64,000 nt of DNA from an uncultured Candidatus Saccharibacteria bacterium (GCA_964573095.1 CAZNIK010000002.1:199230-263229), one strand, 5' to 3'; numbered from the stretch's first letter, positions 5,891 to 42,588 are shown. Translations and numbers: made by a program. Notes: generated from the letters alone by a model not told the origin.

Positions 5891-6057
5891 ACCTATAAAA
5901 ATCTGAGTAAACAGTAGCAAATAACCGACGATCGGACTAAAAGTGCTACGGTTTTGGGCGATGCTGGCGATGCCCTAAGAGGGCGCTAGGGATGGTGTAG
6001 ATTTTACGGCTTACACACCACAGCTAGCGTGGTATGCTTGTTAGTACTTTAATATTT

Positions 6058-6214
6058 CAAGACGCTGGAAGTTGGTGAAAATCCAACACTGTGCCGCAAC
6101 GGTGATCGCAAAATACGCGACAAGTCCGATACAGCAAACAAGAGACAAATTCCCGAGCAGGAAGTCGATCAACCATCCACTGAACCACCTGCTCGCAAAA
6201 AAGCAGGTTTTTTA
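6058..6214 (+). promoter_or_regulatory. candidate cobalamin-type (short/variant) riboswitch core plus terminator/SD-sequestering hairpin
   Basis: ctGGAAgttGGTGAAAATCCaacaCtGtGCCGCAACGGTGA (6064-6105) resembles the cobalamin core AGGGAA-n-GGTGnAAnTCC-n-CnG-n-CCCGCnACnGTnA. A GTTGG/CCAAC hairpin carries a TGAAAAT loop. There is a short TCGC/GCGA hairpin, then cAAGTCCGATACAGC with CAGC complementary to GCTG at 6064-6067. The hairpin CCTGCT(6188-6193)/AGCAGG(6202-6207) plus T6 ends 1 nt before the ATG. Confidence 0.4.
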
Positions 6215-7507: not shown

Positions 7508-9199
7508 CTATTCTGTTCCGTCAGAGAAATGTTCGGTGAGGTAGTCGAGGTGTTTTTCGCGGAATTTTTTAAACTCGCTTTTCTTTAGTCCGGAGTTCTT
7601 GATGAAGGTGCCGATTTTCTCGCTGCCGATATAGTGTGGCATCATCACGTAGCTGGCACCAAGCTCGTACAGCTGTGCGGCTTGTGCAACATTGTCGGCA
7701 TGGCAAATTACGACCGAATGGGGATTGATGCGCTCCATCAGTTTCACCAAAAAGATGTTTGTGTCATGATCCGAAATGGTTGAAACCAGCAGCTTACTTT
7801 TCTCGATCCCGGCCTCATGCAACAATTCAATGTCGGTGGCGTCGCCGTAAAGATACTCAATTTTTTGGTGCTCTAAAAGGTCTATTATTTCGGGATCATA
7901 ATCGATTACGATATAGCGCTTTTTTAGGCTTTTAAAGACGCGTAAAAATTCATGGCCACCCTTGTGGTAGCCGAAAAGCACCAAATCGTAGTGGTGTTTG
8001 GTGATCTGTTGTTCGTACTGGGTTTTTCGTCGTTCAAATAGCCCAAGGTGTCGTTGAAAGTAACCAAAGAGTTGCTCGCTGTACATGATGACGTAGGTCG
8101 AGTAGGCAATCGAAAGAAGGGTCACCAGGGTAAGAGTGGTTACCAGCTCAGCACTGACTTGCCCTTGTTTGTAGGCCAGTGTAATAAAAACCAGTGAGAA
8201 TTCGCTCGTTTGAGCAAGCGCTGTCGAGGCCTTAAAGCTGGTTTGTTTTGTATAGCCCATAAGTCCCATAATTGTGAGGACAACAAACGGCTTAATTAGA
8301 ATTACGACGACCAAGAAGGCAAAAATGTCACCCAGGTAGTTATATATGTTGTCGAAGCGAAGTTGGGTTCCGAGCGCGATGAAGAATACCACAATGAAAA
8401 AATCGCGAAGCGGGCGAAGACGGGCGCTAATTTCCTGTGAGTACGGTAGCGATGCGAGGCTGACACCCGCCACTAAGGCGCCCATCTCGAGACTAAAGCC
8501 GGCCAGCTCGAACAGCGCTGAGCTTCCAAAACCCCACCCAATGGCAAACAGGAATAAGAACTCTTGACTGCCCGCGATAAGGTTGTGCATTTTTGGAAGA
8601 ATCTTGCCACCAATAAGAAACAAAGGAATCGCCACCAGTATGCCCTTGCCAACCAGGCTGGCGAGCTGAGTAACAGAAAATCCAGTACCGTCGCCTTGAG
8701 CGGCCAGCAGCAAGAGTGCGGTTGCGGCAACGATATCTTGAATAATGAGTATGCCAATAACGATCTTGCCGTAAAGGCGACCCTGCTGCTTCTTGTCGGA
8801 AAGCAATTTAAGAATAATAATTGTGCTACTAAAGGCGGTCGCAACACCCGCAAATAGTGACTCGGTATCACCAAGACCTAATAGTTTTCCGACGGTATAA
8901 CCAGCCAGCGTGGTAATTGCAACTTGCAGAACACCAACAGTGCCGGCAACCTTGCCGACCTCCTTTATTACGCCTGGATTCAGCCCAAGACCAATAATAA
9001 ACAGCAGTAGTGCAATACCAATGCTAGAAAAGGTTTCTATGGTTTCTGATGATTGAACCAGGTGCAGAAACGACGGACCCACCAAAATTCCGGTAATGAT
9101 GTGGCCAATAATCAGAGGCTGATGGATCAACCTCATACAAAATGCAATAAACGCACCGAGGGCAATAATAAGGCTTAGTTCTGTGAAGACGGAGTGCAT
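7508..9199 (-). CDS. monovalent cation:proton antiporter (CPA2/Kef-type) with a C-terminal RCK/TrkA-N domain
   Basis: Multi-TM N-terminal region followed by YDLVLFGYHKGGHEFLRVF...IVIDYDPE...YGDATDIELLHEAGI, a Rossmann RCK domain. I prefer the ATG at 9199 (MHSVFTE) over the TTG at 9241 used by the track. Confidence 0.8.
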   Translation of the reverse strand: MHSVFTELSLIIALGAFIAFCMRLIHQPLIIGHIITGILVGPSFLHLVQSSETIETFSSIGIALLLFIIGLGLNPGVIKEVGKVAGTVGVLQVAITTLAGYTVGKLLGLGDTESLFAGVATAFSSTIIILKLLSDKKQQGRLYGKIVIGILIIQDIVAATALLLLAAQGDGTGFSVTQLASLVGKGILVAIPLFLIGGKILPKMHNLIAGSQEFLFLFAIGWGFGSSALFELAGFSLEMGALVAGVSLASLPYSQEISARLRPLRDFFIVVFFIALGTQLRFDNIYNYLGDIFAFLVVVILIKPFVVLTIMGLMGYTKQTSFKASTALAQTSEFSLVFITLAYKQGQVSAELVTTLTLVTLLSIAYSTYVIMYSEQLFGYFQRHLGLFERRKTQYEQQITKHHYDLVLFGYHKGGHEFLRVFKSLKKRYIVIDYDPEIIDLLEHQKIEYLYGDATDIELLHEAGIEKSKLLVSTISDHDTNIFLVKLMERINPHSVVICHADNVAQAAQLYELGASYVMMPHYIGSEKIGTFIKNSGLKKSEFKKFREKHLDYLTEHFSDGTE

Positions 9200-35244: not shown

Positions 35245-36039
35245 CTATTCCAGGTCACGTGTGCGAAAAAAGAAACTACTGAGCCCAGCGCAAACAATGA
35301 TAATCACCAAAAAGAAAAGGGCATTTTTCCACTCATAGGTTCCTCTTAGCACTGCCTCCGATTGATAATAGTGAAAAGGGAATACTTTGCTTGGTGTTTC
35401 CAGCCAGCTGACAGTACTGGCGAGAGAGCTCACAATGTAGCCACCGAGTGCAATCGCGGTGGTAAGACCAATACTTGCTCCTCGAGCCCGCCCTATCGAA
35501 GTCAATAACAAAGCAACTGCACCAAAACTGAGTGCAAGTAGCCAACACAAAAACACCGCCTCAACTATTGGCTTTGTTCCAATCTCTACGCGAACAAGCT
35601 CTTTGCATGCAACGACTGTAATGAGCCCTACCACTGCAACCAAAGAAACAATTATCGCTCCAGCCAAGGCTTTCGATAGGAGGAGTTTTGTTCTACTAAT
35701 TGGTCGAGCCAACAACGATTCGATTGTTTTTTCCTGTTCTTCCTTCGCAATAAGGCCAGCACCAAGACTAATTGCCAAGATGCCGAGCAAAAGCGGGAGC
35801 ATAAAGAAAAATATTTGGCTATTTAGAAACCCCACGGGAGAGAAAAAGTCCGTCGAACCTCCAAATAGCTGAACCGCAGCCTCGGGCAAGTTTTCAAAAC
35901 TTTTTTGTAGCTCTGCTGCTTGGTCCTTGAAGCTGGGATAGAAAATCATGTTGATAAAAACAAACCCGATCACGGCAATGGACCACCAAATTGTGCTAAG
36001 ACGGCGTTGCTTGACAGTCCACTTCACGATTGCGTTCAT
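35245..36039 (-). CDS. ABC-2 family transporter permease
   Basis: 264 aa with 6 TM segments. It overlaps the upstream ATPase gene by 4 nt. Confidence 0.75.
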   Translation of the reverse strand: MNAIVKWTVKQRRLSTIWWSIAVIGFVFINMIFYPSFKDQAAELQKSFENLPEAAVQLFGGSTDFFSPVGFLNSQIFFFMLPLLLGILAISLGAGLIAKEEQEKTIESLLARPISRTKLLLSKALAGAIIVSLVAVVGLITVVACKELVRVEIGTKPIVEAVFLCWLLALSFGAVALLLTSIGRARGASIGLTTAIALGGYIVSSLASTVSWLETPSKVFPFHYYQSEAVLRGTYEWKNALFFLVIIIVCAGLSSFFFRTRDLE

Positions 36040-36974
36040 TTTTTGGCTCCCTGTTGGTAGTAGTGCATAAATTCTTCTTCAAGATCCAGGGTTCGTGCGT
36101 CCATCTTTGTGATATCGCTTTTTGCGAGCACCACCAATAGGTCCTTTAGCTTCCCATGGATATGGATGGTTGCTTTGTGCCCAGAGGCGCTGATTATTTT
36201 GGCGCCTTTTATTTTTTTCAATGCGGCGAGTGGCGCCTCTCCAGAAAATTCTAGGTCAAACGTTTGGGTGGCTTCAAAAGCAAGTTCCGAAATATTATCT
36301 TCACCCACAAGTTTTCCGTCTCGGATAATTCCGACTCGGTCACACATTTTTTGAACCTCACTCAATATGTGGCTGCTGACAAAAATGGTGGCATTGCGTT
36401 GTTTTGCCTCTCGAAGCAGCTCATAGAAAACCTCTTGCATGAGGGGGTCAAGGCCGGTAGTAGGCTCGTCAAAAATGATCACGTTTGGTTTGTGCATTAA
36501 AGCTTGGATGATGCCAACCTTCTGTTTATTCCCCCTCGAGAGCTCACCAAGCCGTTTTTTCATCTCTGGCTTTAGCTTCTTGATCAGATATTTTTGGTAA
36601 GAGTTATCAAACTGTCCTTGGAGCTCAGACATGTAGTCAAAATATTCGCCGGTAGTCATTTTGGGATACATTGCCATGTCGCCAGACAAATAGCCGATAG
36701 ATTTTCGTATTTTTACACTATCTTTTACAATGTCGTAGCCTAAAATTTTGGCAGTACCGCCGGAGGGTTGCAAAAAGTTCATCAGCAATTTTATGGTCGT
36801 TGATTTTCCTGCGCCGTTTGGCCCCAAAAATCCGTACACCTCCCCGGGCATTACTCGTAGTGATACATTATCCAAGGCCAGTCGGTCGCTGCCGCGGTAG
36901 CGTTTGCTCAGACCAATCATCTCTATTCCTGGCGTGTCTAACTCTTTACTCATATTGCTTTTAGTATATCCCAC
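36036..36974 (-). CDS. ABC transporter ATP-binding protein
   Basis: Walker A GPNGAGKST, signature LSRGNKQK, Walker B VIIFDEPTTGLD. Confidence 0.9.
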   Translation of the reverse strand: MGYTKSNMSKELDTPGIEMIGLSKRYRGSDRLALDNVSLRVMPGEVYGFLGPNGAGKSTTIKLLMNFLQPSGGTAKILGYDIVKDSVKIRKSIGYLSGDMAMYPKMTTGEYFDYMSELQGQFDNSYQKYLIKKLKPEMKKRLGELSRGNKQKVGIIQALMHKPNVIIFDEPTTGLDPLMQEVFYELLREAKQRNATIFVSSHILSEVQKMCDRVGIIRDGKLVGEDNISELAFEATQTFDLEFSGEAPLAALKKIKGAKIISASGHKATIHIHGKLKDLLVVLAKSDITKMDARTLDLEEEFMHYYQQGAKK

Positions 36975-36986
36975 AAAACAACAAGC

Positions 36987-37592
36987 CTAGTGCATACTGT
37001 TAATCACGAAATTATTCCCACTGTCTTCGCCCATTATTATTACCGAGCGAAGGTGTCTATCGTCATTTCGGATCGACACAATATCTGCAAAAACATTCAC
37101 TGCGGCAATTTCTTGGTCAATTTTTTGCAGCGGGCCGAGTCGCGCAATCGTTCGACCCCAATATTCCATTGCAAAACCATTTGCGGGGTAGATGACATCG
37201 ACTTTCTTACTTTCAACTTGATCATTGGTGATTTCTAATGCAGCTGCAAACTCACCCAGGGCGAGCTCCAACCCGTCCTTGTCAAACTCATTTGCAACAA
37301 TCCGCTCGAGTGGGGCTTTGGTTGTGTTTTTGCCAAACAAATCTGTGGTCTGCTGTGAAGGCAGATCGACAACTTGTGCGCCACGTAGCTTTCGGCGAAC
37401 TATGAATGGCTCAACCCAACTAGAACTTATACCGAAATTCAGAGCGCAGTATCCAACCAAATCGGTACCCGACTTAAAACTGGCGTTTGGACTATCGCTA
37501 AGTTCTTGTAGTTTAACTCTCACGTCTTCTCGCATAGAATCCAAAACCGGTGTTTGTTCAAAAGCATTACCTATTTTGTGCGATCCGCTCAT
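36987..37592 (-). CDS. hypothetical protein (201 aa)
   Basis: ORF in an operon-like arrangement between the lipoprotein and ABC genes. No motif recognised. Confidence 0.5.
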   Translation of the reverse strand: MSGSHKIGNAFEQTPVLDSMREDVRVKLQELSDSPNASFKSGTDLVGYCALNFGISSSWVEPFIVRRKLRGAQVVDLPSQQTTDLFGKNTTKAPLERIVANEFDKDGLELALGEFAAALEITNDQVESKKVDVIYPANGFAMEYWGRTIARLGPLQKIDQEIAAVNVFADIVSIRNDDRHLRSVIIMGEDSGNNFVINSMH

Positions 37593-37603
37593 TTGGGTCG
37601 CCG

Positions 37604-38014
37604 CTAGTTTGTTGGCCCAGGATATCTAGAGGTAAATGTAACTACAGGGAACTCCTCTTGAAGCGCCCCGCGGCAGGTTACTTTTGCCATACCACTTTTC
37701 AGCACTCGAACTTCCTTTGTGATGACGGTGTCGAGCCCCGCAGAGTTTTCTATAACTTCTCTCGACGCCCCGCAGTCAGTGTATGGCACGTCCTCGACAT
37801 GCATCAAAAAACTTTTGCCAGCTTGCTCTGAGGACCGATTTTCATCCTGGTGTATTCCTAGATATCGCGCATTATCTGGAACGCGAATTGGTTTTTCGTA
37901 CGCTATTTCAAAGTCGCTACACCCAGCCGACGCACCGCCTAGAGCAATAACCGACAAGCCAATTGCCGCGACTCTAGATGCACTAAATGTGGTTCTTACG
38001 CTCTCAAACTTCAT
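37604..38014 (-). CDS. hypothetical lipoprotein
   Basis: Signal peptide with lipobox: VIALGGASAGC-SD. Confidence 0.6.
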   Translation of the reverse strand: MKFESVRTTFSASRVAAIGLSVIALGGASAGCSDFEIAYEKPIRVPDNARYLGIHQDENRSSEQAGKSFLMHVEDVPYTDCGASREVIENSAGLDTVITKEVRVLKSGMAKVTCRGALQEEFPVVTFTSRYPGPTN

Positions 38015-38071
38015 ATCGTTTCCTAAACTAATTATCTAACCAACAGATTCAATACACAAGCATGGGCAAGG

Positions 38072-38095
38072 AAAAAAGACCTCCGAAGAGGTTTT
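38072..38095 (-). terminator. intrinsic terminator (minus-strand reading ACCTC-TTCG-GAGGT followed by CTTTTTTCC)
   Basis: Stem 38076-38083 / 38088-38095. On the minus strand it is followed by T6. Confidence 0.6.
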
Positions 38096-38096
38096 G

Positions 38097-38136
38097 AATT
38101 CTCACTTGGTAGTGGGCGTGGTCTCGCAGTGGAACC
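38097..38136 (-). repeat. diverged copy of the 3' end of the tRNA-fMet gene plus its flank (att-like scar)
   Basis: aattctcacttggtagtgggcgtggtctcgcagtggaacc compared with aatt-tcacttggtagcgggggcaggactcg------aacc at 42306-42339. Same orientation. Confidence 0.5.
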
Positions 38137-38221
38137 TAATCTGCGAGGAATTAGTTAGGTGGCGATCAATTATGAAGGTGGCTAAAAGATACCCGTTCCT
38201 CTAGTGCGTAACAGCGGAACT

Positions 38222-38845
38222 CTATATACGTTGGTACCGGCGGCGAAACGCTTGATATTCAGGATAAAGCCTATCTCTTAAATTATTCCACTGGACGCCC
38301 TTAAAGGTATCTGGCAAAGCATAGCCTAATCGAGACGCCCGAATGGAAAGGGCCGCGTGGCTCAAAGTGGTGCCTGTTTCATGCTTCAGCCTAACGATAT
38401 GCTCTGAAGTACATTGACCTTTTTCAATTGAACGTTCTGCCATGTGGTCTGCAAACAAGCCCGTTGGATATATTAGTTCGCTCGCAAAAACATCAGCCGC
38501 TCTCTCCATTACCACATGCTCATTATTGTCGCTGCACAGGGAAACTTCATGAATATCATCCATCAAGTGGTGCTTTAGCTCGTGGCCCAGAGTAAAGACC
38601 TTTGGGTCAATTTGTGTCATTAGCTTTTTGTTTACCATAACCGTACAGCCAGCAGAGTCATTAAAATAAGCACCCCTAATTCGTGTGCTTTTGAAGCCGT
38701 CGTAATAATCTACGCGGTCAATGCCTTCGGCCCGGAATATTTTTTTGAGGTCGTTCACCATCACGCGGGGTGTAGTTAGGCTGTATTGCGCCCTAACTTC
38801 TCGCGCACGAGCTCTTGCTGCTTGGTATTGCTCTTTTGGTGTCAC
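38222..38845 (-). CDS. ImmA/IrrE-family zinc metallopeptidase (COG2856)
   Basis: HEXXH motif in FTLGHELKHHLMDD, followed by ERAADVFASELIYP. Located 15 nt downstream of the XRE gene. Confidence 0.8.
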   Translation of the reverse strand: MTPKEQYQAARARAREVRAQYSLTTPRVMVNDLKKIFRAEGIDRVDYYDGFKSTRIRGAYFNDSAGCTVMVNKKLMTQIDPKVFTLGHELKHHLMDDIHEVSLCSDNNEHVVMERAADVFASELIYPTGLFADHMAERSIEKGQCTSEHIVRLKHETGTTLSHAALSIRASRLGYALPDTFKGVQWNNLRDRLYPEYQAFRRRYQRI

Positions 38846-38860
38846 GATAGATCATTCCTG

Positions 38861-39220
38861 CTACTGTCTTACTCTTTTTGTAGCCTTCACGTTTTTATAA
38901 TGATGTCTCGCTTGTCGAAACTCTGCATAACGCTGCAGCTCCGCAAGGTCGTCGCCCTTTAAGTTGCCCGCTGCTCTTAGCAAGGCCTGGAGTTCCGGCT
39001 TAGTCGCTGGGTCTTCACCAGGGAAGAAAGCCAATACAGAAACTTTAAAATAGCGAGCAATTTTTTCGAGGTCTTCGAGGTCGGGCTTATATGTTCCAGT
39101 TTCCCATCTTGAAACAGTATTAGTCGCCACCTTTAGCTCTGTGGCCAAGCCATCTTGAGTCAGCTTGGCGTTGGTGCGTAGCTCTTTGATTTTGTTGGCC
39201 ACGTGTTCAAGAATGTTCAT
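38861..39220 (-). CDS. XRE-family helix-turn-helix transcriptional regulator
   Basis: Contains IKELRTNAKLTQDGLATELKVATNTVSRWETGTYKPDLEDLEKIARYFKVSV. Confidence 0.85.
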   Translation of the reverse strand: MNILEHVANKIKELRTNAKLTQDGLATELKVATNTVSRWETGTYKPDLEDLEKIARYFKVSVLAFFPGEDPATKPELQALLRAAGNLKGDDLAELQRYAEFRQARHHYKNVKATKRVRQ

Positions 39221-39244
39221 AGTTTACCCCTGTCAATATACTTA

Positions 39245-39272
39245 AACAGTAAAATTACAACACATTACTGTT
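39245..39272. promoter_or_regulatory. operator candidate: perfect 8-bp inverted repeat AACAGTAA-N12-TTACTGTT overlapping a -35-like TTGACG
   Basis: The repeat arms are at 39245-39252 and 39265-39272. TTGACG at 39271-39276 is followed 18 nt later by TATACT at 39295-39300, facing the plus-strand genes. Confidence 0.55.
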
Positions 39273-39342
39273 GACGTATTGTTCCTTTCCTATTTATACT
39301 TATTGCGTAAGTTAATTGTATAAAAAAGGAAACGATAAAGCA

Positions 39343-39621
39343 ATGAGCGTCTTACTTATCAGCTACGACCTAGGTTCTTCTGAAACTTCGAACGACTACC
39401 AAGATTTGATTAAAAAAATAAAATCCTACGGCGGCTATGCCAAGCCCGAGTACTCACTTTGGCTCATTACGACAGACAAGCTGACGTCTACCGTGCGTGA
39501 CGAACTAAAGCAATACATGGATAAAAACGACAAGCTTTTAGTCATGCGAGTCACCGGCGACGGCTGGGCGAGCTTCAACCTGTCGGATAGCGTTGTTGAG
39601 TGGATGAAAGATAATATTTAA
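39343..39621 (+). CDS. small acidic hypothetical protein (92 aa), beta-alpha-beta pattern reminiscent of the Cas2/VapD ferredoxin fold
   Basis: The protein is MSVLLISYDLGSS..DYQDLIKKIKSYGGYAKPEYSLWLITTD...VRDELKQYMDKNDKLLVMRVTGD. I prefer the ATG at 39343 over the TTG at 39316. Confidence 0.5.
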   Translation: MSVLLISYDLGSSETSNDYQDLIKKIKSYGGYAKPEYSLWLITTDKLTSTVRDELKQYMDKNDKLLVMRVTGDGWASFNLSDSVVEWMKDNI

Positions 39622-39635
39622 AGGAGTGTCGGGAT

Positions 39636-39848
39636 ATGAGTTACTACTACATCAATAAGAATGCCCAAGAAAACGGCGAACACGAAGTTCATACGACCGG
39701 CTGTACGCACCCGCCAGAAGAATCAAACAGAATCGGTTTAGGTAATTTTGACTACTGTTGGCAGGCCGTCGCTTTAGCAAAGCAAAAGTGGCCGCAGCTA
39801 TCAATCAATGGTTGCTACTACTGTGCCAGTGCTTGTCATACGGGTTGA
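39636..39848 (+). CDS. small Cys/His-rich hypothetical protein (70 aa)
   Basis: Contains YYINKNAQENGEHEVHTTGC...C...NGCYYCASACH. I believe similar small proteins are widespread, but I cannot name the family. Confidence 0.5.
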   Translation: MSYYYINKNAQENGEHEVHTTGCTHPPEESNRIGLGNFDYCWQAVALAKQKWPQLSINGCYYCASACHTG

Positions 39849-39932
39849 GCGCATTAAATCGTACTAGATAAGGTGTAATGAGGGTGCTATTAGATTATAA
39901 TTACTAGTACAACTGGAGGGTTCTGAGGGTAT

Positions 39933-40973
39933 ATGGTTAAAAAGCTGAGGAAGAAACACCTAACATCTATAGAAGTCTGTGCTGGCGCAGGTGGTCAGGC
40001 GCTTGGCCTAGAGATGGCTGGTTTTAAGCATGTCGCACTTATTGAGAATGATGCCCGGTGTTGTGAAACGCTGCGTCTTAATCGACCTCATTGGAATGTG
40101 CTCGAAGAAGACCTAAATGAATTTGAAGGAAGCCCTTACGAAGGCGTGGATCTTGTGGCTGGTGGTGTTCCGTGTCCACCGTTTTCTCATGCTGGTAAAC
40201 AGCTAGGGCACCTAGATGACCGAGACCTGTTTCCTGCTGCTCTTAAATTAGTTGAACAGACCAAACCAAAGGCAGTATTACTAGAGAATGTTCGTGGGTT
40301 GCTTGACCCGAAGTTTGCCGCCTATCGTCAGCAGATTTTAGACAGACTTAAAGAACTTGGCTACGATGGAGAGTGGAAGCTGATACAGGCAGCCAGTCAT
40401 GGAGTACCCCAATTGCGACCTCGTGCAATTCTTGTGGCGCTAAGACCAGAATATTTTGAATACTTTGAGTGGCCAGAACCCACTACGGAAGAGCATATGA
40501 CTGTTGGGGAAGCGTTGCATGGTGAGATGTCTAGCTTAGGATGGAGGCTGGCTGATGAATGGAAGAAACTTGCCAATAAAGTTGCTCCTACTTTGGTAGG
40601 TGGCTCTAAAAAACATGGTGGCGCTGACCTAGGCCCTACTAGGGCAAAAGCGGCCTGGGAAAAGCTGGGAGTTGACGGCAAGGGCGTAGCGGATAGTCCA
40701 CCGCATGCTGATTTTGAGGGACTGCCTCGTTTAACCGTTCAGATGTCAGCCATACTTCAAGGATTCCCTAAAGAGTGGAAAATTGCTGGTAAAAAAACTA
40801 GTGCATACAAGCAGGTTGGCAACGCCTTTCCACCACCAGTTGCAGCAGCAATAGGCCAAGCCATACAGTTTGCTATTGTCATGGTTCCTCAACACGCTAC
40901 TGCAGCAACTTCAGACGACGAAGACGCTAGTCAGATTCCTTCGTTTGCTTCTTCTGAAGTTCCCGCTGTCTAA
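39933..40973 (+). CDS. DNA (cytosine-5)-methyltransferase
   Basis: Motif I EVCAGAGGQALGL, motif IV GGVPCPPFSHAG, motif VI LLENVRGL, motif VIII QLRPRAILV, motif X QVGNAFPPPVA. Confidence 0.9.
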   Translation: MVKKLRKKHLTSIEVCAGAGGQALGLEMAGFKHVALIENDARCCETLRLNRPHWNVLEEDLNEFEGSPYEGVDLVAGGVPCPPFSHAGKQLGHLDDRDLFPAALKLVEQTKPKAVLLENVRGLLDPKFAAYRQQILDRLKELGYDGEWKLIQAASHGVPQLRPRAILVALRPEYFEYFEWPEPTTEEHMTVGEALHGEMSSLGWRLADEWKKLANKVAPTLVGGSKKHGGADLGPTRAKAAWEKLGVDGKGVADSPPHADFEGLPRLTVQMSAILQGFPKEWKIAGKKTSAYKQVGNAFPPPVAAAIGQAIQFAIVMVPQHATAATSDDEDASQIPSFASSEVPAV

Positions 40974-41730
40974 TAGCAGCACGAACACTGCCCTCTGGCC
41001 ATGGTTCAAAGTGCACAAGTGTAAAAGCAGACTTTACTTTATTACCTTCGCGTTTCTTTGAGACTGAATAATCCCAACCTAATTCCCGCAATTCCCTCAT
41101 ACGTTTTTGCCAGTCATCTTGGTATTGCTTGGCCTTTGCGACAATATCTATCAAGTCTGATGGTACAGGTTTTCCATCAAAGGCCTTTAATAACTCGCCG
41201 ATGCGCTTATGGACTTCATCATAATTTGCAGAAGCTTTAATTTTATCTGCGAACTCGTCATATGTGGCGTATAAGTTTTTCTTACCCTCGTTACATTCCG
41301 AACAAAGCGCTTGAAGATTACCCCTGTCATTAGTACCACCCCATTCTTGAGGCATCTTATGGTCGACATGCAGCTTAACTCCGTCTTCTGTTGGTGTTCT
41401 GCCACATTGCGCACAACGTTGGTCTCTCAGTGCCCAAGCCCTATCACTGCCACTTATACTACTGGTATTGAGAGCTACTTCACGTTTTTGCTTGAGGGTG
41501 TAGAGATTCTTATTATCACAATGGATTACGAACAACTTTCTTAGGTCTCGCAAGCGACGGCCCAGCTGTTCTTGCTCGCCTACCGCAAGTCCCATAGCTT
41601 CGCGAATCTGAGCAATAGATAGGGGGTTATCTTGATTCTCATAGAGAATACGATAAATTGCGCGGCCTTTAGTATGGGTTACCAGTTTGTCCAGTTCTTC
41701 GGATCCTGGAGCTGGTAATTCAGTATTCAC
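40927..41730 (-). CDS. HNH endonuclease with an N-terminal winged-helix-like domain (candidate cognate restriction enzyme)
   Basis: Contains CAQCGRTP...LHVDHKMPQEWGGTNDRGNLQALCSECNEGKKN (CX2C...HNH...CX2C). Convergent with the MTase gene and overlapping its 3' end by 47 nt. GTG start. Confidence 0.75.
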   Translation of the reverse strand: MNTELPAPGSEELDKLVTHTKGRAIYRILYENQDNPLSIAQIREAMGLAVGEQEQLGRRLRDLRKLFVIHCDNKNLYTLKQKREVALNTSSISGSDRAWALRDQRCAQCGRTPTEDGVKLHVDHKMPQEWGGTNDRGNLQALCSECNEGKKNLYATYDEFADKIKASANYDEVHKRIGELLKAFDGKPVPSDLIDIVAKAKQYQDDWQKRMRELRELGWDYSVSKKREGNKVKSAFTLVHFEPWPEGSVRAAIRQRELQKKQTKESD

Positions 41731-42083
41731 AAAGCTTAGTATGCCAGATGTACACCCTTGATACCAGAGAGTCCCTCTATGGGCTTTCGGCTCAAAGACA
41801 TAGGATTAATCTTTATATTATTGCTGGCAATGAGGCGATAGAGACCACTCTAGGTGCACAACGCCCAAGCTTGAAAGACGTATCAGTTTTAGTGTAATTT
41901 TTGATTAAATCAAGATATCGGTATTAGCACCGCGAAAATGCTTGCGGGGCAGGGGCAAAGCACATCTACAGTTGTGCTCGGAGCGAGCTCCTGTGCGCAA
42001 CTTCGATGACCGTACCAGCGACTACGATATTTTCCGTGAGGAAAATATCAGTCTCAGAACCGAGTCAAACACAGTACCAAAAT

Positions 42084-42106
42084 AAAAACCCCATCTTTCG
42101 ATGAGG
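42084..42106 (-). terminator. strand-specific intrinsic terminator (minus strand: CCTCATC-GAAA-GATGGGG followed by TTTTTATTTT)
   Basis: The stem is perfect with one G-U pair on the minus strand only; the plus strand would have a C-A mismatch. It lies 10 nt after the tRNA-end copy. Confidence 0.6.
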
Positions 42107-42116
42107 TTCATAATTT

Positions 42117-42137
42117 TGGTAGCGGGGGCAGGACTCG
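42117..42137 (-). repeat. exact 21-nt copy of the 3' end of the tRNA-fMet gene
   Basis: tggtagcgggggcaggactcg is identical to 42315-42335. After an indel the similarity resumes at gcgacc. Confidence 0.85.
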
Positions 42138-42273
42138 GTCACGTTCCGCGACCCCGAAACTTCACGATTGAAAACCAGTTTCCATCGGAAGATTTCCTTG
42201 CGGACTGCCACAGGCAATCCTCACCTCCGACCCTTAGCGTCGCAACTCGAATCTTGACCATGGTACAGAGTGA

Positions 42274-42302
42274 AATCAAAAACCACCTACTTCTAGGTGG
42301 TT
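42274..42302 (-). terminator. intrinsic terminator of the tRNA-fMet gene
   Basis: Minus strand reads AACCACCTA-GAAG-TAGGTGGTT followed by TTTGATTT. It lies 12 nt after the tRNA 3' end. Confidence 0.7.
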
Positions 42303-42314
42303 CCAAATTTCACT

Positions 42315-42389
42315 TGGTAGCGGGGGCAGGACTCGAACCTGCGACCTTGTGGTTATGAGCCACACGAGCTGCCACTGCTCTACCCCGCG
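42315..42389 (-). tRNA. initiator tRNA-fMet (CAU)
   Basis: Sequence CGCGGGGTAGAGCAGTGGCAGCTCGTGTGGCTCATAACCACAAGGTCGCAGGTTCGAGTCCTGCCCCCGCTACCA. Positions 1:72 are unpaired (C-U) and A11:U24 is present. It resembles E. coli tRNA-fMet closely. Only two of the usual three G-C pairs are found at the base of the anticodon stem. Confidence 0.85.
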
Positions 42390-42588
42390 TCGTCAGACCT
42401 AGTAGTTAGCTAGCGACGGCGACCACAAAACAAGTTTGTTGGTCCTCGTCGACGAGCTTAGTACTGCTCCTCCTCTCAAAACTTCAAACAGGCAAGCCTT
42501 GGTTTAAAGTTTTGTTTTATGAACCCAACTGTGGGATCAGTAGAGTATTGTACTAAACAGAGGTAGTTTTGTCAATGAAGGTTGTTAT

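Follow-up and report, generated by a model that had tools for sequence, protein, structure and literature searches.

Defence genes and structured non-coding units behind the initiator tRNA gene of a Candidatus Saccharibacteria bacterium: a probable stack of insertions related to a new family of large serine recombinase elements

The DNA considered here is a stretch of 64,000 nucleotides (nt) from an uncultured Candidatus Saccharibacteria bacterium (GCA_964573095.1, CAZNIK010000002.1:199230-263229), which will be referred to as the window, and the region of interest is that between positions 38,097 and 42,389, where a group of accessory genes lies behind a gene for an initiator tRNA (tRNA-iMet). 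The Saccharibacteria and Patescibacteria have tiny genomes from which few mobile elements have been described, and the acquisition and exchange of anti-phage systems by them are poorly known. In the original prediction, which was made from the sequence of the window, this region was regarded as one islet delimited by three copies of the tRNA 3' end. The results presented here indicate that several separate insertions at 3' ends of the tRNA type are probably stacked in the locus, and that the layer with the genes is probably a stranded representative of a new family of defence cassettes with a large serine recombinase (LSR). The features of the locus are given below in the order of their coordinates; three non-coding modules are called units A, B, and C, the short segments with terminator-type hairpins are called trailers 1–3, and ORF stands for open reading frame.

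37604-38014: lipoprotein gene; trailer 3 lies upstream of it.
38079-38106, minus strand: trailer 3 (AGTGAGAATTC...), with a terminator hairpin at 38079-38092 (terminator scan).
38107-38221, minus strand: unit C, the distal-end module (attP P arm), with the junction at its last bases, CTACCA (38112-38107).
38222-38845, minus strand: ImmA/IrrE (M78) metallopeptidase, CapP-like (Pfam Peptidase_M78; PADLOC capP, 1.8e-10).
38861-39220, minus strand: XRE-type helix-turn-helix (HTH) repressor, CapH-like (Pfam HTH_3, 2.5e-14; PADLOC capH, 3e-11).
39221-39342: divergent control region, with a promoter-like site at 39271-39300 (plus strand) and a palindrome at 39238-39279 that overlaps its -35.
39343-39621, plus strand: orf92, whose small product resembles Cas2 weakly (PADLOC Cas2b, 2.7e-5) and has no match in Pfam or NCBIfam.
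39636-39848, plus strand: orf70, whose small product is rich in Cys and His and matches no family.
39933-40973, plus strand: C-5 cytosine (m5C) DNA methyltransferase of 346 aa (Pfam DNA_methylase, 1e-64; PADLOC DruM/MTase_II, 1e-146; NCBIfam dcm).
40927-41730, minus strand: HNH nuclease of 267 aa (Pfam HNH, 6e-10; PADLOC REase_II, 2e-5, HNH motif only).
41731-41938: non-coding spacer with no ORF, at the place where the recombinase module sits in intact elements.
41939-42076, minus strand: unit B, structured and non-coding, with a degenerate tRNA-like tail (41939-41955).
42077-42116, minus strand: trailer 2, with an intrinsic-terminator hairpin at 42086-42109 (terminator scan).
42117-42277, minus strand: unit A, non-coding and structured, with its folded part at about 42132-42254 and a single-stranded 3' tail that is the inner copy of the tRNA end (42116-42137).
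42278-42314, minus strand: trailer 1 (AGTGAAATTTGGAACC...), with a terminator-like hairpin (inverted repeat).
42315-42389, minus strand: initiator-type tRNA-Met(CAT) (ARAGORN and Rfam), with the C1xU72 mismatch seen in initiator tRNAs.
42547-42575: promoter-like site of tRNA-iMet (promoter scan).

The window contains three tRNA-Met(CAT) genes (ARAGORN, Rfam), and the tRNA-iMet gene at 42315-42389 is the target (attB) of the whole insertion stack. Its 3' end recurs, as had been predicted, at the inner site, where TTGGTAGCGGGGGCAGGACTCG forms an exact repeat of 22 nt (42116-42137 and 42314-42335; the last 21 nt of the tRNA and one flanking base), which is one nt more than had been claimed. The similarity also resumes past a short indel in the manner predicted, with GGTCGC common to the inner copy and the tRNA beyond a stretch of 10 vs. 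5 nt. This repeat encloses merely 177 nt of non-coding DNA. The outer copy (38097-38116) agrees with the tRNA end and its trailer (42305-42324) at 17 of 20 ungapped positions, including an exact core of 11 nt, TCACTTGGTAG. It is the best non-tRNA match of the tRNA end on both strands of the window (score 28; next 24), but because an equal score is reached somewhere in 2–15% of the dinucleotide shuffles of the window, depending upon the query and the scoring, this copy is marginal by itself. That the similarity is nevertheless real follows from the strain L135 (labels of this kind denote related loci or contigs that were compared with the window), in which the homologous site, GGTTCCAAAATTCACTTGGTAGCG, is identical to the tRNA end and trailer of the window in 24 of 25 positions, and also from the 13-member family to which this copy belongs. 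A fourth, degenerate copy (minus-strand text cccctgccccgcaagca) was found at 41939-41955. All of these copies share one orientation, in agreement with the original prediction. The leader of tRNA-iMet (42390-42545), which occupies 156 nt between the promoter-like site and the 5' end of the tRNA, is replaced by 11–16 nt in three contigs that are 97–99% identical (L003, L005, L012; a strain-level indel), and the tRNA leaders of L147 and L077 are also about 130 nt long, with conserved blocks.

Judged by its sequence, the outer copy is the tip of unit C. The outer junction and the tRNA have 11 nt in common (CTACCAAGTGA), and beyond these the likeness to the tRNA is that of a GGTTCCA motif in the attP arm, which resembles the GGTTCGA of the T loop; the gapped alignment proposed earlier, with 20 of 25 identical positions and a 6-nt insertion, over-reads this likeness. 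Unit C is about 115–125 nt in length and the copy in the window aligns with 12 others (13-member alignments A1 and A2). Its conserved block, read 5' to 3' on the minus strand, is CCTCGCAGATTAGGTTCCA (38130-38148), and of the conserved block CCTCACAGATTAGGTTCCA the window has a single occurrence, with one mismatch, as against 0.01 expected. The conservation of this unit is in its primary sequence, with three GTTCCA-type motifs and, in most members, TATAAT; a reading of it as a structured RNA was rejected (RNAalifold, -0.6 kcal/mol; no covarying pairs). The inverted motifs GGTTC(C/G)A and TGGAACC are spaced by 32 nt at a junction with unit C, and by 27 nt at the tRNA. In serine-recombinase sites a 5-nt offset between attP-type and attB-type half-sites is known, and the two spacings would fit such an offset, an analogy that is only suggestive. 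On the chromosomal side of the junction, trailer 3 is, by comparison with the other trailers, the displaced one of the tRNA type.

The comparison with related loci defines a family of small integrative LSR elements of Saccharibacteria/Patescibacteria that was previously undescribed; in the literature that was searched there was no earlier description of this recombinase family, of the overlap between its ORF and the tRNA, of unit C or of the tRNA-tailed structured units. The intact elements are 4–8.5 kb in length, and in them the gene for the LSR (about 525 aa) adjoins the tRNA and unit C lies at the far end:

L027, 5433 bp: tRNA-iMet, 525-aa recombinase, OLD/AriA-like nuclease, unit C.
L150, 8232 bp: tRNA-iMet, recombinase, HsdR-like protein, MmeI-like methylase, HEPN protein, unit C.
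L151, 8530 bp: tRNA-iMet, with unit C distal.
L145, 4068 bp: the same layout at tRNA-Glu.

In L016 and L152 the recombinase is likewise found at tRNA-iMet, with unit C beyond range or unrecognised, and the L016 recombinase contains the domains Resolvase, Recombinase, and Zn_ribbon_recom. At least 310 homologues of the recombinase were found at E <= 1e-30, some of which are named Saccharibacteria or Patescibacteria recombinases by their sources. The attL and attR sites of the elements share 7–11 nt (CGCTACCAAGT in L150, CAACCAAGT in L151, CGCTACCAA in L027, and TCACCAA in L145), which puts the crossover into C(T/A)ACCAA, at the tRNA's 3' terminus. The original prediction of site-specific integration at a tRNA 3' end is thus upheld by the intact LSR relatives at the same tRNA-iMet (L027, L150, L151, L152, L016), but the short shared segment is not the classical footprint of a tRNA 3' end duplicated by a tyrosine integrase. 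Every intact recombinase ORF crosses an element-borne terminator and runs into the antisense strand of the tRNA, so that the att site and the recombinase gene have the latter's 3' end in common, and the tail of the recombinase protein would be expected to differ between the integrated and the excised states.

The cargo of these elements and islets is defence in every case examined. Among the elements it is an OLD/AriA-like system in L027 and restriction-modification in L150 and L152, whereas in the LSR-less islets it comprises a CBASS (an anti-phage signalling system based on cyclic oligonucleotides) with CapH/CapP in L133, and an m5C methylase and HNH protein with a CapH/CapP-like pair in the window. 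The site of the window's islet, beside the gene for an RNA recognition motif (RRM) protein, is also occupied in L150 and L152. When the window is compared with this family, unit C and a trailer and terminator of the tRNA type are present, the site, the orientation and the single defence cargo fit, and an adjacent LSR is lacking. The single metagenome scan made use of a 20-mer that was too short, and 4 of 13 loci resemble chance matches. A phage origin was rejected, as four scans of viral collections (two DNA patterns, an LSR protein, and an LSR alignment) gave at most one distant LSR of 22% identity. The recombinase ORFs are located at 4744-6321 in L027, 10001-11575 in L150, 10001-11593 in L151 and L152, and 58-1701 in L145; the L027 protein has the C-terminus ..LVAGAGLEPATSWL and the other recombinases end alike. 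Directly upstream of the recombinase there is a conserved ORF of 57–71 aa with the motif ISVKEARKLLG... (L150, 9805-10017; L152, 9825-9998; L145, 1691-1906), of which none is present in the window and which is a candidate excision factor or regulator.

The accessory genes of the window, and the lack of a recombinase among them, are as originally described (ORFs, Pfam, and tblastn over the 64 kb). The HNH gene is convergent with the methylase gene, which it overlaps by 47 nt, and its product is a candidate restriction enzyme; together, the m5C methylase and the HNH protein look like a type II restriction-modification system. The two regulator genes are adjacent to each other and divergent from the methylase operon, with a palindrome in the shared promoter region, which is the layout of CapH/CapP. 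From this arrangement, the palindrome at 39238-39279 is likely to be the operator of the CapH-like repressor, and the pair probably controls the divergent operon orf92-orf70-m5C methylase, so that the islet as a whole is likely a regulated defence cassette of the restriction-modification type. The CapH/CapP immune operons similarly have an HTH repressor and an M78 peptidase in a divergent pair with a palindrome between (Lau et al., bioRxiv 10.1101/2022.04.27.489752), but the matches here are modest (1e-10 to 1e-11) and the genes are a methylase and two small ORFs. No recombinase domain was detected among the islet ORFs by Pfam, and tblastn of the whole 64 kb with the LSRs of L027 and L145 gave only an artefactual match antisense to the tRNA. 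A recombinase remnant in 41731-41938 was rejected upon the same two LSRs, which were negative there, and a kinship of orf92 and orf70 with the small ORFs beside LSRs was rejected as there is no similarity. An islet without a recombinase is either decayed or movable only in trans, and in this respect the original prediction holds.

Exact protein matches of the locus were found in the metagenome-assembled genome GCA_041907465.1, which of the assemblies in the collections is most like the window (98.9% identical here), and in a number of contigs from Logan and JGI. The 21-mer, scanned against species-representative genomes, and the protein hits put the lineage in Saccharibacteria. The backbone proteins of a sister species, L133 (GCA_041906505.1), are 87–99% identical and its flanks are the same, and between them lie a CapP/CapH pair and a CBASS (cyclase-E2 fusion and an effector with one transmembrane segment, 1TM). 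In the strain L135 the flank is 93.5% identical overall and 95–100% identical up to 37947; it departs from the window about 40 nt inside the region of the outer copy, beyond which there is unrelated DNA with other cargo. As L133 and L135 both hold other DNA in the same frame, the gene block is a variable accessory defence islet, which confirms its predicted accessory nature. An empty site was sought by looking up the exact lipoprotein and methylase and by way of the homologues of the neighbouring 201-aa protein, but every site that came up was occupied, with few close relatives in the collections. The original prediction looked to an empty site or to a uniform gene order to decide the matter; only occupied sites were found, but the gene order is not uniform, with other cargo in both L133 and L135.

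Between the genes and the tRNA lie units B and A, both of which show strongly covarying folds. In the alignment of unit A (A4, 8 sequences) there are 45 pairs, 20 of them changed on both sides, and 89.7% of the cells are paired; none of 500 shuffles was as high and only 32–48% were paired when the partners were slid. The tail of this unit, CCTGCCCCCGCTACCA, is unpaired. Unit B is recognised by the covariance model R1 with 130 bits (E = 3e-31), and in its alignment (A3, 10 species) there are 29 pairs, 18 of them changed on both sides, with 93.5% paired and 0 of 500 shuffles as high. The covariance model finds unit B solely right behind tRNA-iMet or a displaced trailer, and always on the tRNA strand. 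The inner copy, the 177-nt spacer and the tRNA are kept at 73–82% in seven other Saccharibacteria species, and in many further species DNA homologous to about 41946-42137 of the window abuts the tRNA directly. Trailer 2 agrees in type with the displaced chromosomal trailer that L027 has at its attR (805-830 therein), and the type of trailer 1 is common behind tRNA-iMet in the clade, being also found after unit C in L135, after unit B in L133, and after the tRNA in L041. Trailer 2 and unit B (41939-42116) are thus ancestral to the clade and separate the inner copy from the genes, a finding with which the three copies can no longer be held to delimit a single islet, and which makes the tail of unit B, and not the tRNA, the likelier inner boundary. 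In L133 as well as in the window, the variable genes start past a degenerate unit B tail, and the islet of the window probably has its inner junction at this tail (41939-41955).

The sister species L133 lacks unit A, yet the body of this unit (95 nt) shows 92% identity with that of L077; a protein that L046, which has the same unit A, shares with the window is only 56% identical. In L077 two copies of unit A, one base apart, diverge exactly at CTACCA and after CCCCCGC. These observations and the exact repeat of 22 nt favour the view that unit A was inserted at the tRNA late, as does the trailer of ancestral type (trailer 2) that follows the unit. The inner copy may consequently be credited to a separate later event, as was originally suggested, but it is the tail of a covarying unit and not a bare att scar. 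In L106 a 50-aa C-terminal remnant of an LSR is fused to the tail of unit B in the same register as at tRNAs, so that such tails probably act as secondary sites of attachment.

Several other identities of these units were considered. A transfer-messenger RNA (tmRNA) reading, prompted by GAUUCGGUUCUGCGAC near the 5' end, was rejected since ARAGORN was negative and the units are too short and have neither G3:U70 nor a tag ORF, and there was no Y RNA match for either unit. An invariant GGTCG(G/C)AGG(T/G)GA at about 42207-42218 in unit A holds the Shine-Dalgarno-like GGAGGTGA, which in the window precedes a TTG by 6 nt; a 50-aa protein in unit A (TTG ORF, 42065-42217, behind GGAGGTGA) was rejected, as the ORF is not conserved and in L077 has a stop after 11 codons. 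An integron cassette array, considered as the units are imperfect palindromes, was also rejected, there being no integrase in the islet and no conserved hairpin in unit C. GTTRRRY/RYYYAAC boxes were not noticed on reading the unit sequences, a dedicated search not having been run. Downstream of tRNA-iMet in L041, a third type of unit (about 110 nt) precedes unit A. Four independent Logan contigs end exactly at 42159 and a fifth, which is 100% identical over 36000-42165, ends at 42165; these contigs (L001, L002, L007, L008, L011) all end in unit A, 22–28 nt past the inner copy, and such ends suggest a branch of the assembly graph and hence population heterogeneity from there.

These observations can be accommodated by the stack of separate insertions proposed above, which we consider the probable history of the locus and in which three layers can be distinguished. 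The first layer, the islet at 38107-41938, would be a recombinase-less derivative of the LSR element family. An intact member brings with it a new trailer and terminator for the tRNA, one anti-phage system, and a unit C end, the tip of which resembles a T arm. The islet would have entered at the tail of unit B (41939-41955), acting as a secondary attachment site, and this tail would have decayed later; the recombinase module, whose place is now taken by 41731-41938, would have been lost and unit C kept. Without that module the islet can no longer move, except through a related LSR in trans. The second layer, unit B with its terminator, would be older DNA that is found clade-wide, and the third, unit A with its terminator, would be the last addition, made right at the tRNA, which produced the exact 22-nt repeat.

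A number of points weigh against this interpretation. Neither an LSR gene nor a junction of the attL type has left a trace in the spacer at 41731-41938, so that the descent from LSR elements rests upon unit C, the position and the type of cargo. The unit C of the window is the most diverged member of its family and has lost the second GTTCCA motif, and L152 has a recombinase without a recognisable unit C. Conversely, the unit C-like module of L136 (1260-1420) has no recombinase within 7 kb; both it and the module of L140 (1042-1345), behind which a unit B-like element comes, have the look of orphaned remnants at other places in the phylum. No empty site or excised form was seen, and all 23 of the 23 contigs with an identical methylase share the same gene order. 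Base composition was dropped as an indicator of foreign DNA, as the G+C content of the islet is not deviant. Additionally, in L045 (856-1136) there are two tandem copies of unit B, of which the proximal and not the distal one has the degenerate tail, and the decay of the core does not track the distance from the tRNA. The order of the layers given above is not the sole possible history, and the site rules of the LSRs leave unexplained the insertion of units A and B, which have left arms of the tRNA type and not of the unit C type.

As to what units A and B are, we suggest only tentatively that they form a new class of structured elements of about 150 nt with an initiator-tRNA 3' tail, which could be either miniature non-autonomous mobile elements or non-coding RNAs (ncRNAs) that mimic the end of tRNA-iMet, and which in either case would act as decoy landing pads. 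If this is true, then recombinase-borne defence cassettes pile up behind the single essential initiator tRNA gene and not in it. Among the alternatives to the stack of insertions, the one that survives best, although it remains doubtful, is that both units are host ncRNA genes whose tails imitate tRNA-iMet for 3' processing, stability or the binding of initiation factors, and are merely exploited by the recombinase elements, in which case the repeats would be no footprints of integration. The strong covariation and the many G-U pairs that both units have on the tRNA-sense strand are as expected of RNA genes, each unit has its own terminator behind it, the units always occur right behind tRNA-iMet or a displaced trailer on the same strand in at least 12 species, and CCTGCCCCC is retained even in those tails that lack CTACCA. 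However, the promoter scan found no promoter-like site before either unit, and a terminator hairpin parts each from upstream transcription; no relevant Rfam family was matched by the units, the 177-nt spacer or the outer copy in either gathering or E-value mode. CTACCA is lost in about half of the tails, the near-identical duplicates of L077 part company exactly at this motif, and the spread of the units is patchy, with unit A missing in L133 and yet 92% identical in L077.

A second alternative, which we regard as unlikely, is that of a replacement island, in which the cargo between two conserved anchors, formed by unit B toward the tRNA and unit C toward the lipoprotein gene, was swapped by homologous recombination without any recent site-specific event. 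The window, L133 and L135 do share a frame running from the tail of unit B to unit C with different cargo in it, there is no recombinase in the window and no compositional deviation of the islet, and the identity between the window and L135 fades gradually over 37950-38150 and does not stop at one base. The anchors, however, are just 115–140 nt long and 67–83% identical between the haplotypes, which makes them a poor substrate for homologous exchange, and unit C is borne by the intact LSR elements, even by that at tRNA-Glu (L145), so that it is not a host anchor. Such replacement accounts for the turnover of the cargo and not for the origin of the structure, and it may have acted alongside the layered insertions.

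It is more unlikely still that the region is an island of a tyrosine integrase with attL at the tRNA, attR at 38.1 kb, and an inner copy left by a second integration of the same kind. Three copies in one orientation are in keeping with such an origin, as is the inner identity block, which begins at the T loop and ends one base past CCA; a block of this extent is reportedly typical for tyrosine integrases of the T-loop type. Against this, the outer copy shares just 11 nt with the tRNA end, no direct repeat of the tRNA 3' end of 15 nt or more bounds the whole island, the inner copy bounds merely the 177 nt of structured non-coding DNA, and the ancestral trailer 2 and unit B would fall inside the supposed island. 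Moreover, no tyrosine recombinase was present among the genes examined beside tRNA-iMet in related loci (10 candidate ORFs, one LSR confirmed by Pfam, and precomputed Pfam tables; a non-exhaustive set), and every recombinase seen at these loci was an LSR. Lastly, the view that chance accounts for the outer similarity and that the genes lie in ordinary chromosomal DNA, to which the shuffled windows with an equal score lend something, is highly improbable in the light of the match in L135, the 13 members of the module family, and the different cargo in close relatives.

In the logic of its enzyme, the system of layered insertions appears closest to the SCC (staphylococcal cassette chromosome) elements, including SCCmec, of staphylococci. 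These are mobilised by the LSRs CcrAB or CcrC, target the protein gene rlmH/orfX, are 20–60 kb in length, and carry resistance cargo. In both cases LSR cassettes are inserted at the 3' end of one conserved gene, stack in tandem, and leave recombinase-less forms (pseudo-SCC elements) that are movable only in trans, but here the target is a tRNA, the recombinase ORF overlaps the target, and there are structured non-coding units. A likeness also exists to the cis-mobilizable elements (CIMEs) of Streptococcus thermophilus, which are derived from tyrosine-integrase integrative and conjugative elements (ICEs) at fda, with no tRNA involved: these too are att-flanked DNA without recombination genes, are arranged in tandem at one site, and have been proposed to be mobilised in trans, whereas here neither a helper element nor mobilisation in trans is in evidence.

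The tycheposons of Prochlorococcus, of which 474 of 501 carry a tRNA-associated tyrosine recombinase and whose attachment sites are typically about 40 nt (Hackl et al., bioRxiv 10.1101/2020.12.28.424599), are similar in being small cargo elements of a streamlined genome with specific tRNA targets that include tRNA-Met (10.1101/2020.12.28.424599). In their islands, as here, the newest elements lie beside the tRNA and the older ones are pushed out, there are partial tRNAs, degenerate elements and integrase-less remnants, and close strains differ. In contrast to tycheposons, the enzyme here is an LSR, with 7–11 nt shared at the extreme 3' end of the tRNA, and the cargo is anti-phage defence, whereas theirs is mostly for nutrient acquisition; nor have tycheposons been described with a distal module of about 115 nt or with structured tRNA-tailed units. 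The hallmark tyrosine recombinase and replication genes of tycheposons were found neither in the window nor in its intact relatives, and the resemblance is one in the mode of island growth and not of membership.

The locus points to a simple vehicle built of three modules (a serine recombinase, a single defence system, and an end module that is conserved), whose target is the initiator tRNA and of which fixed cassettes without a recombinase remain that vary from one close strain to the next. As the recombinases come with inferred attachment sites they are directly testable, and they could serve as integration tools in a phylum that is hard to manipulate. Two further observations concern other DNA: a cobalamin riboswitch is present in the window at 6025-6153 (Rfam, 37 bits), and the related metagenome contig L147 contains a match to a group I intron at 8457-8655 (Rfam, 56.8 bits).

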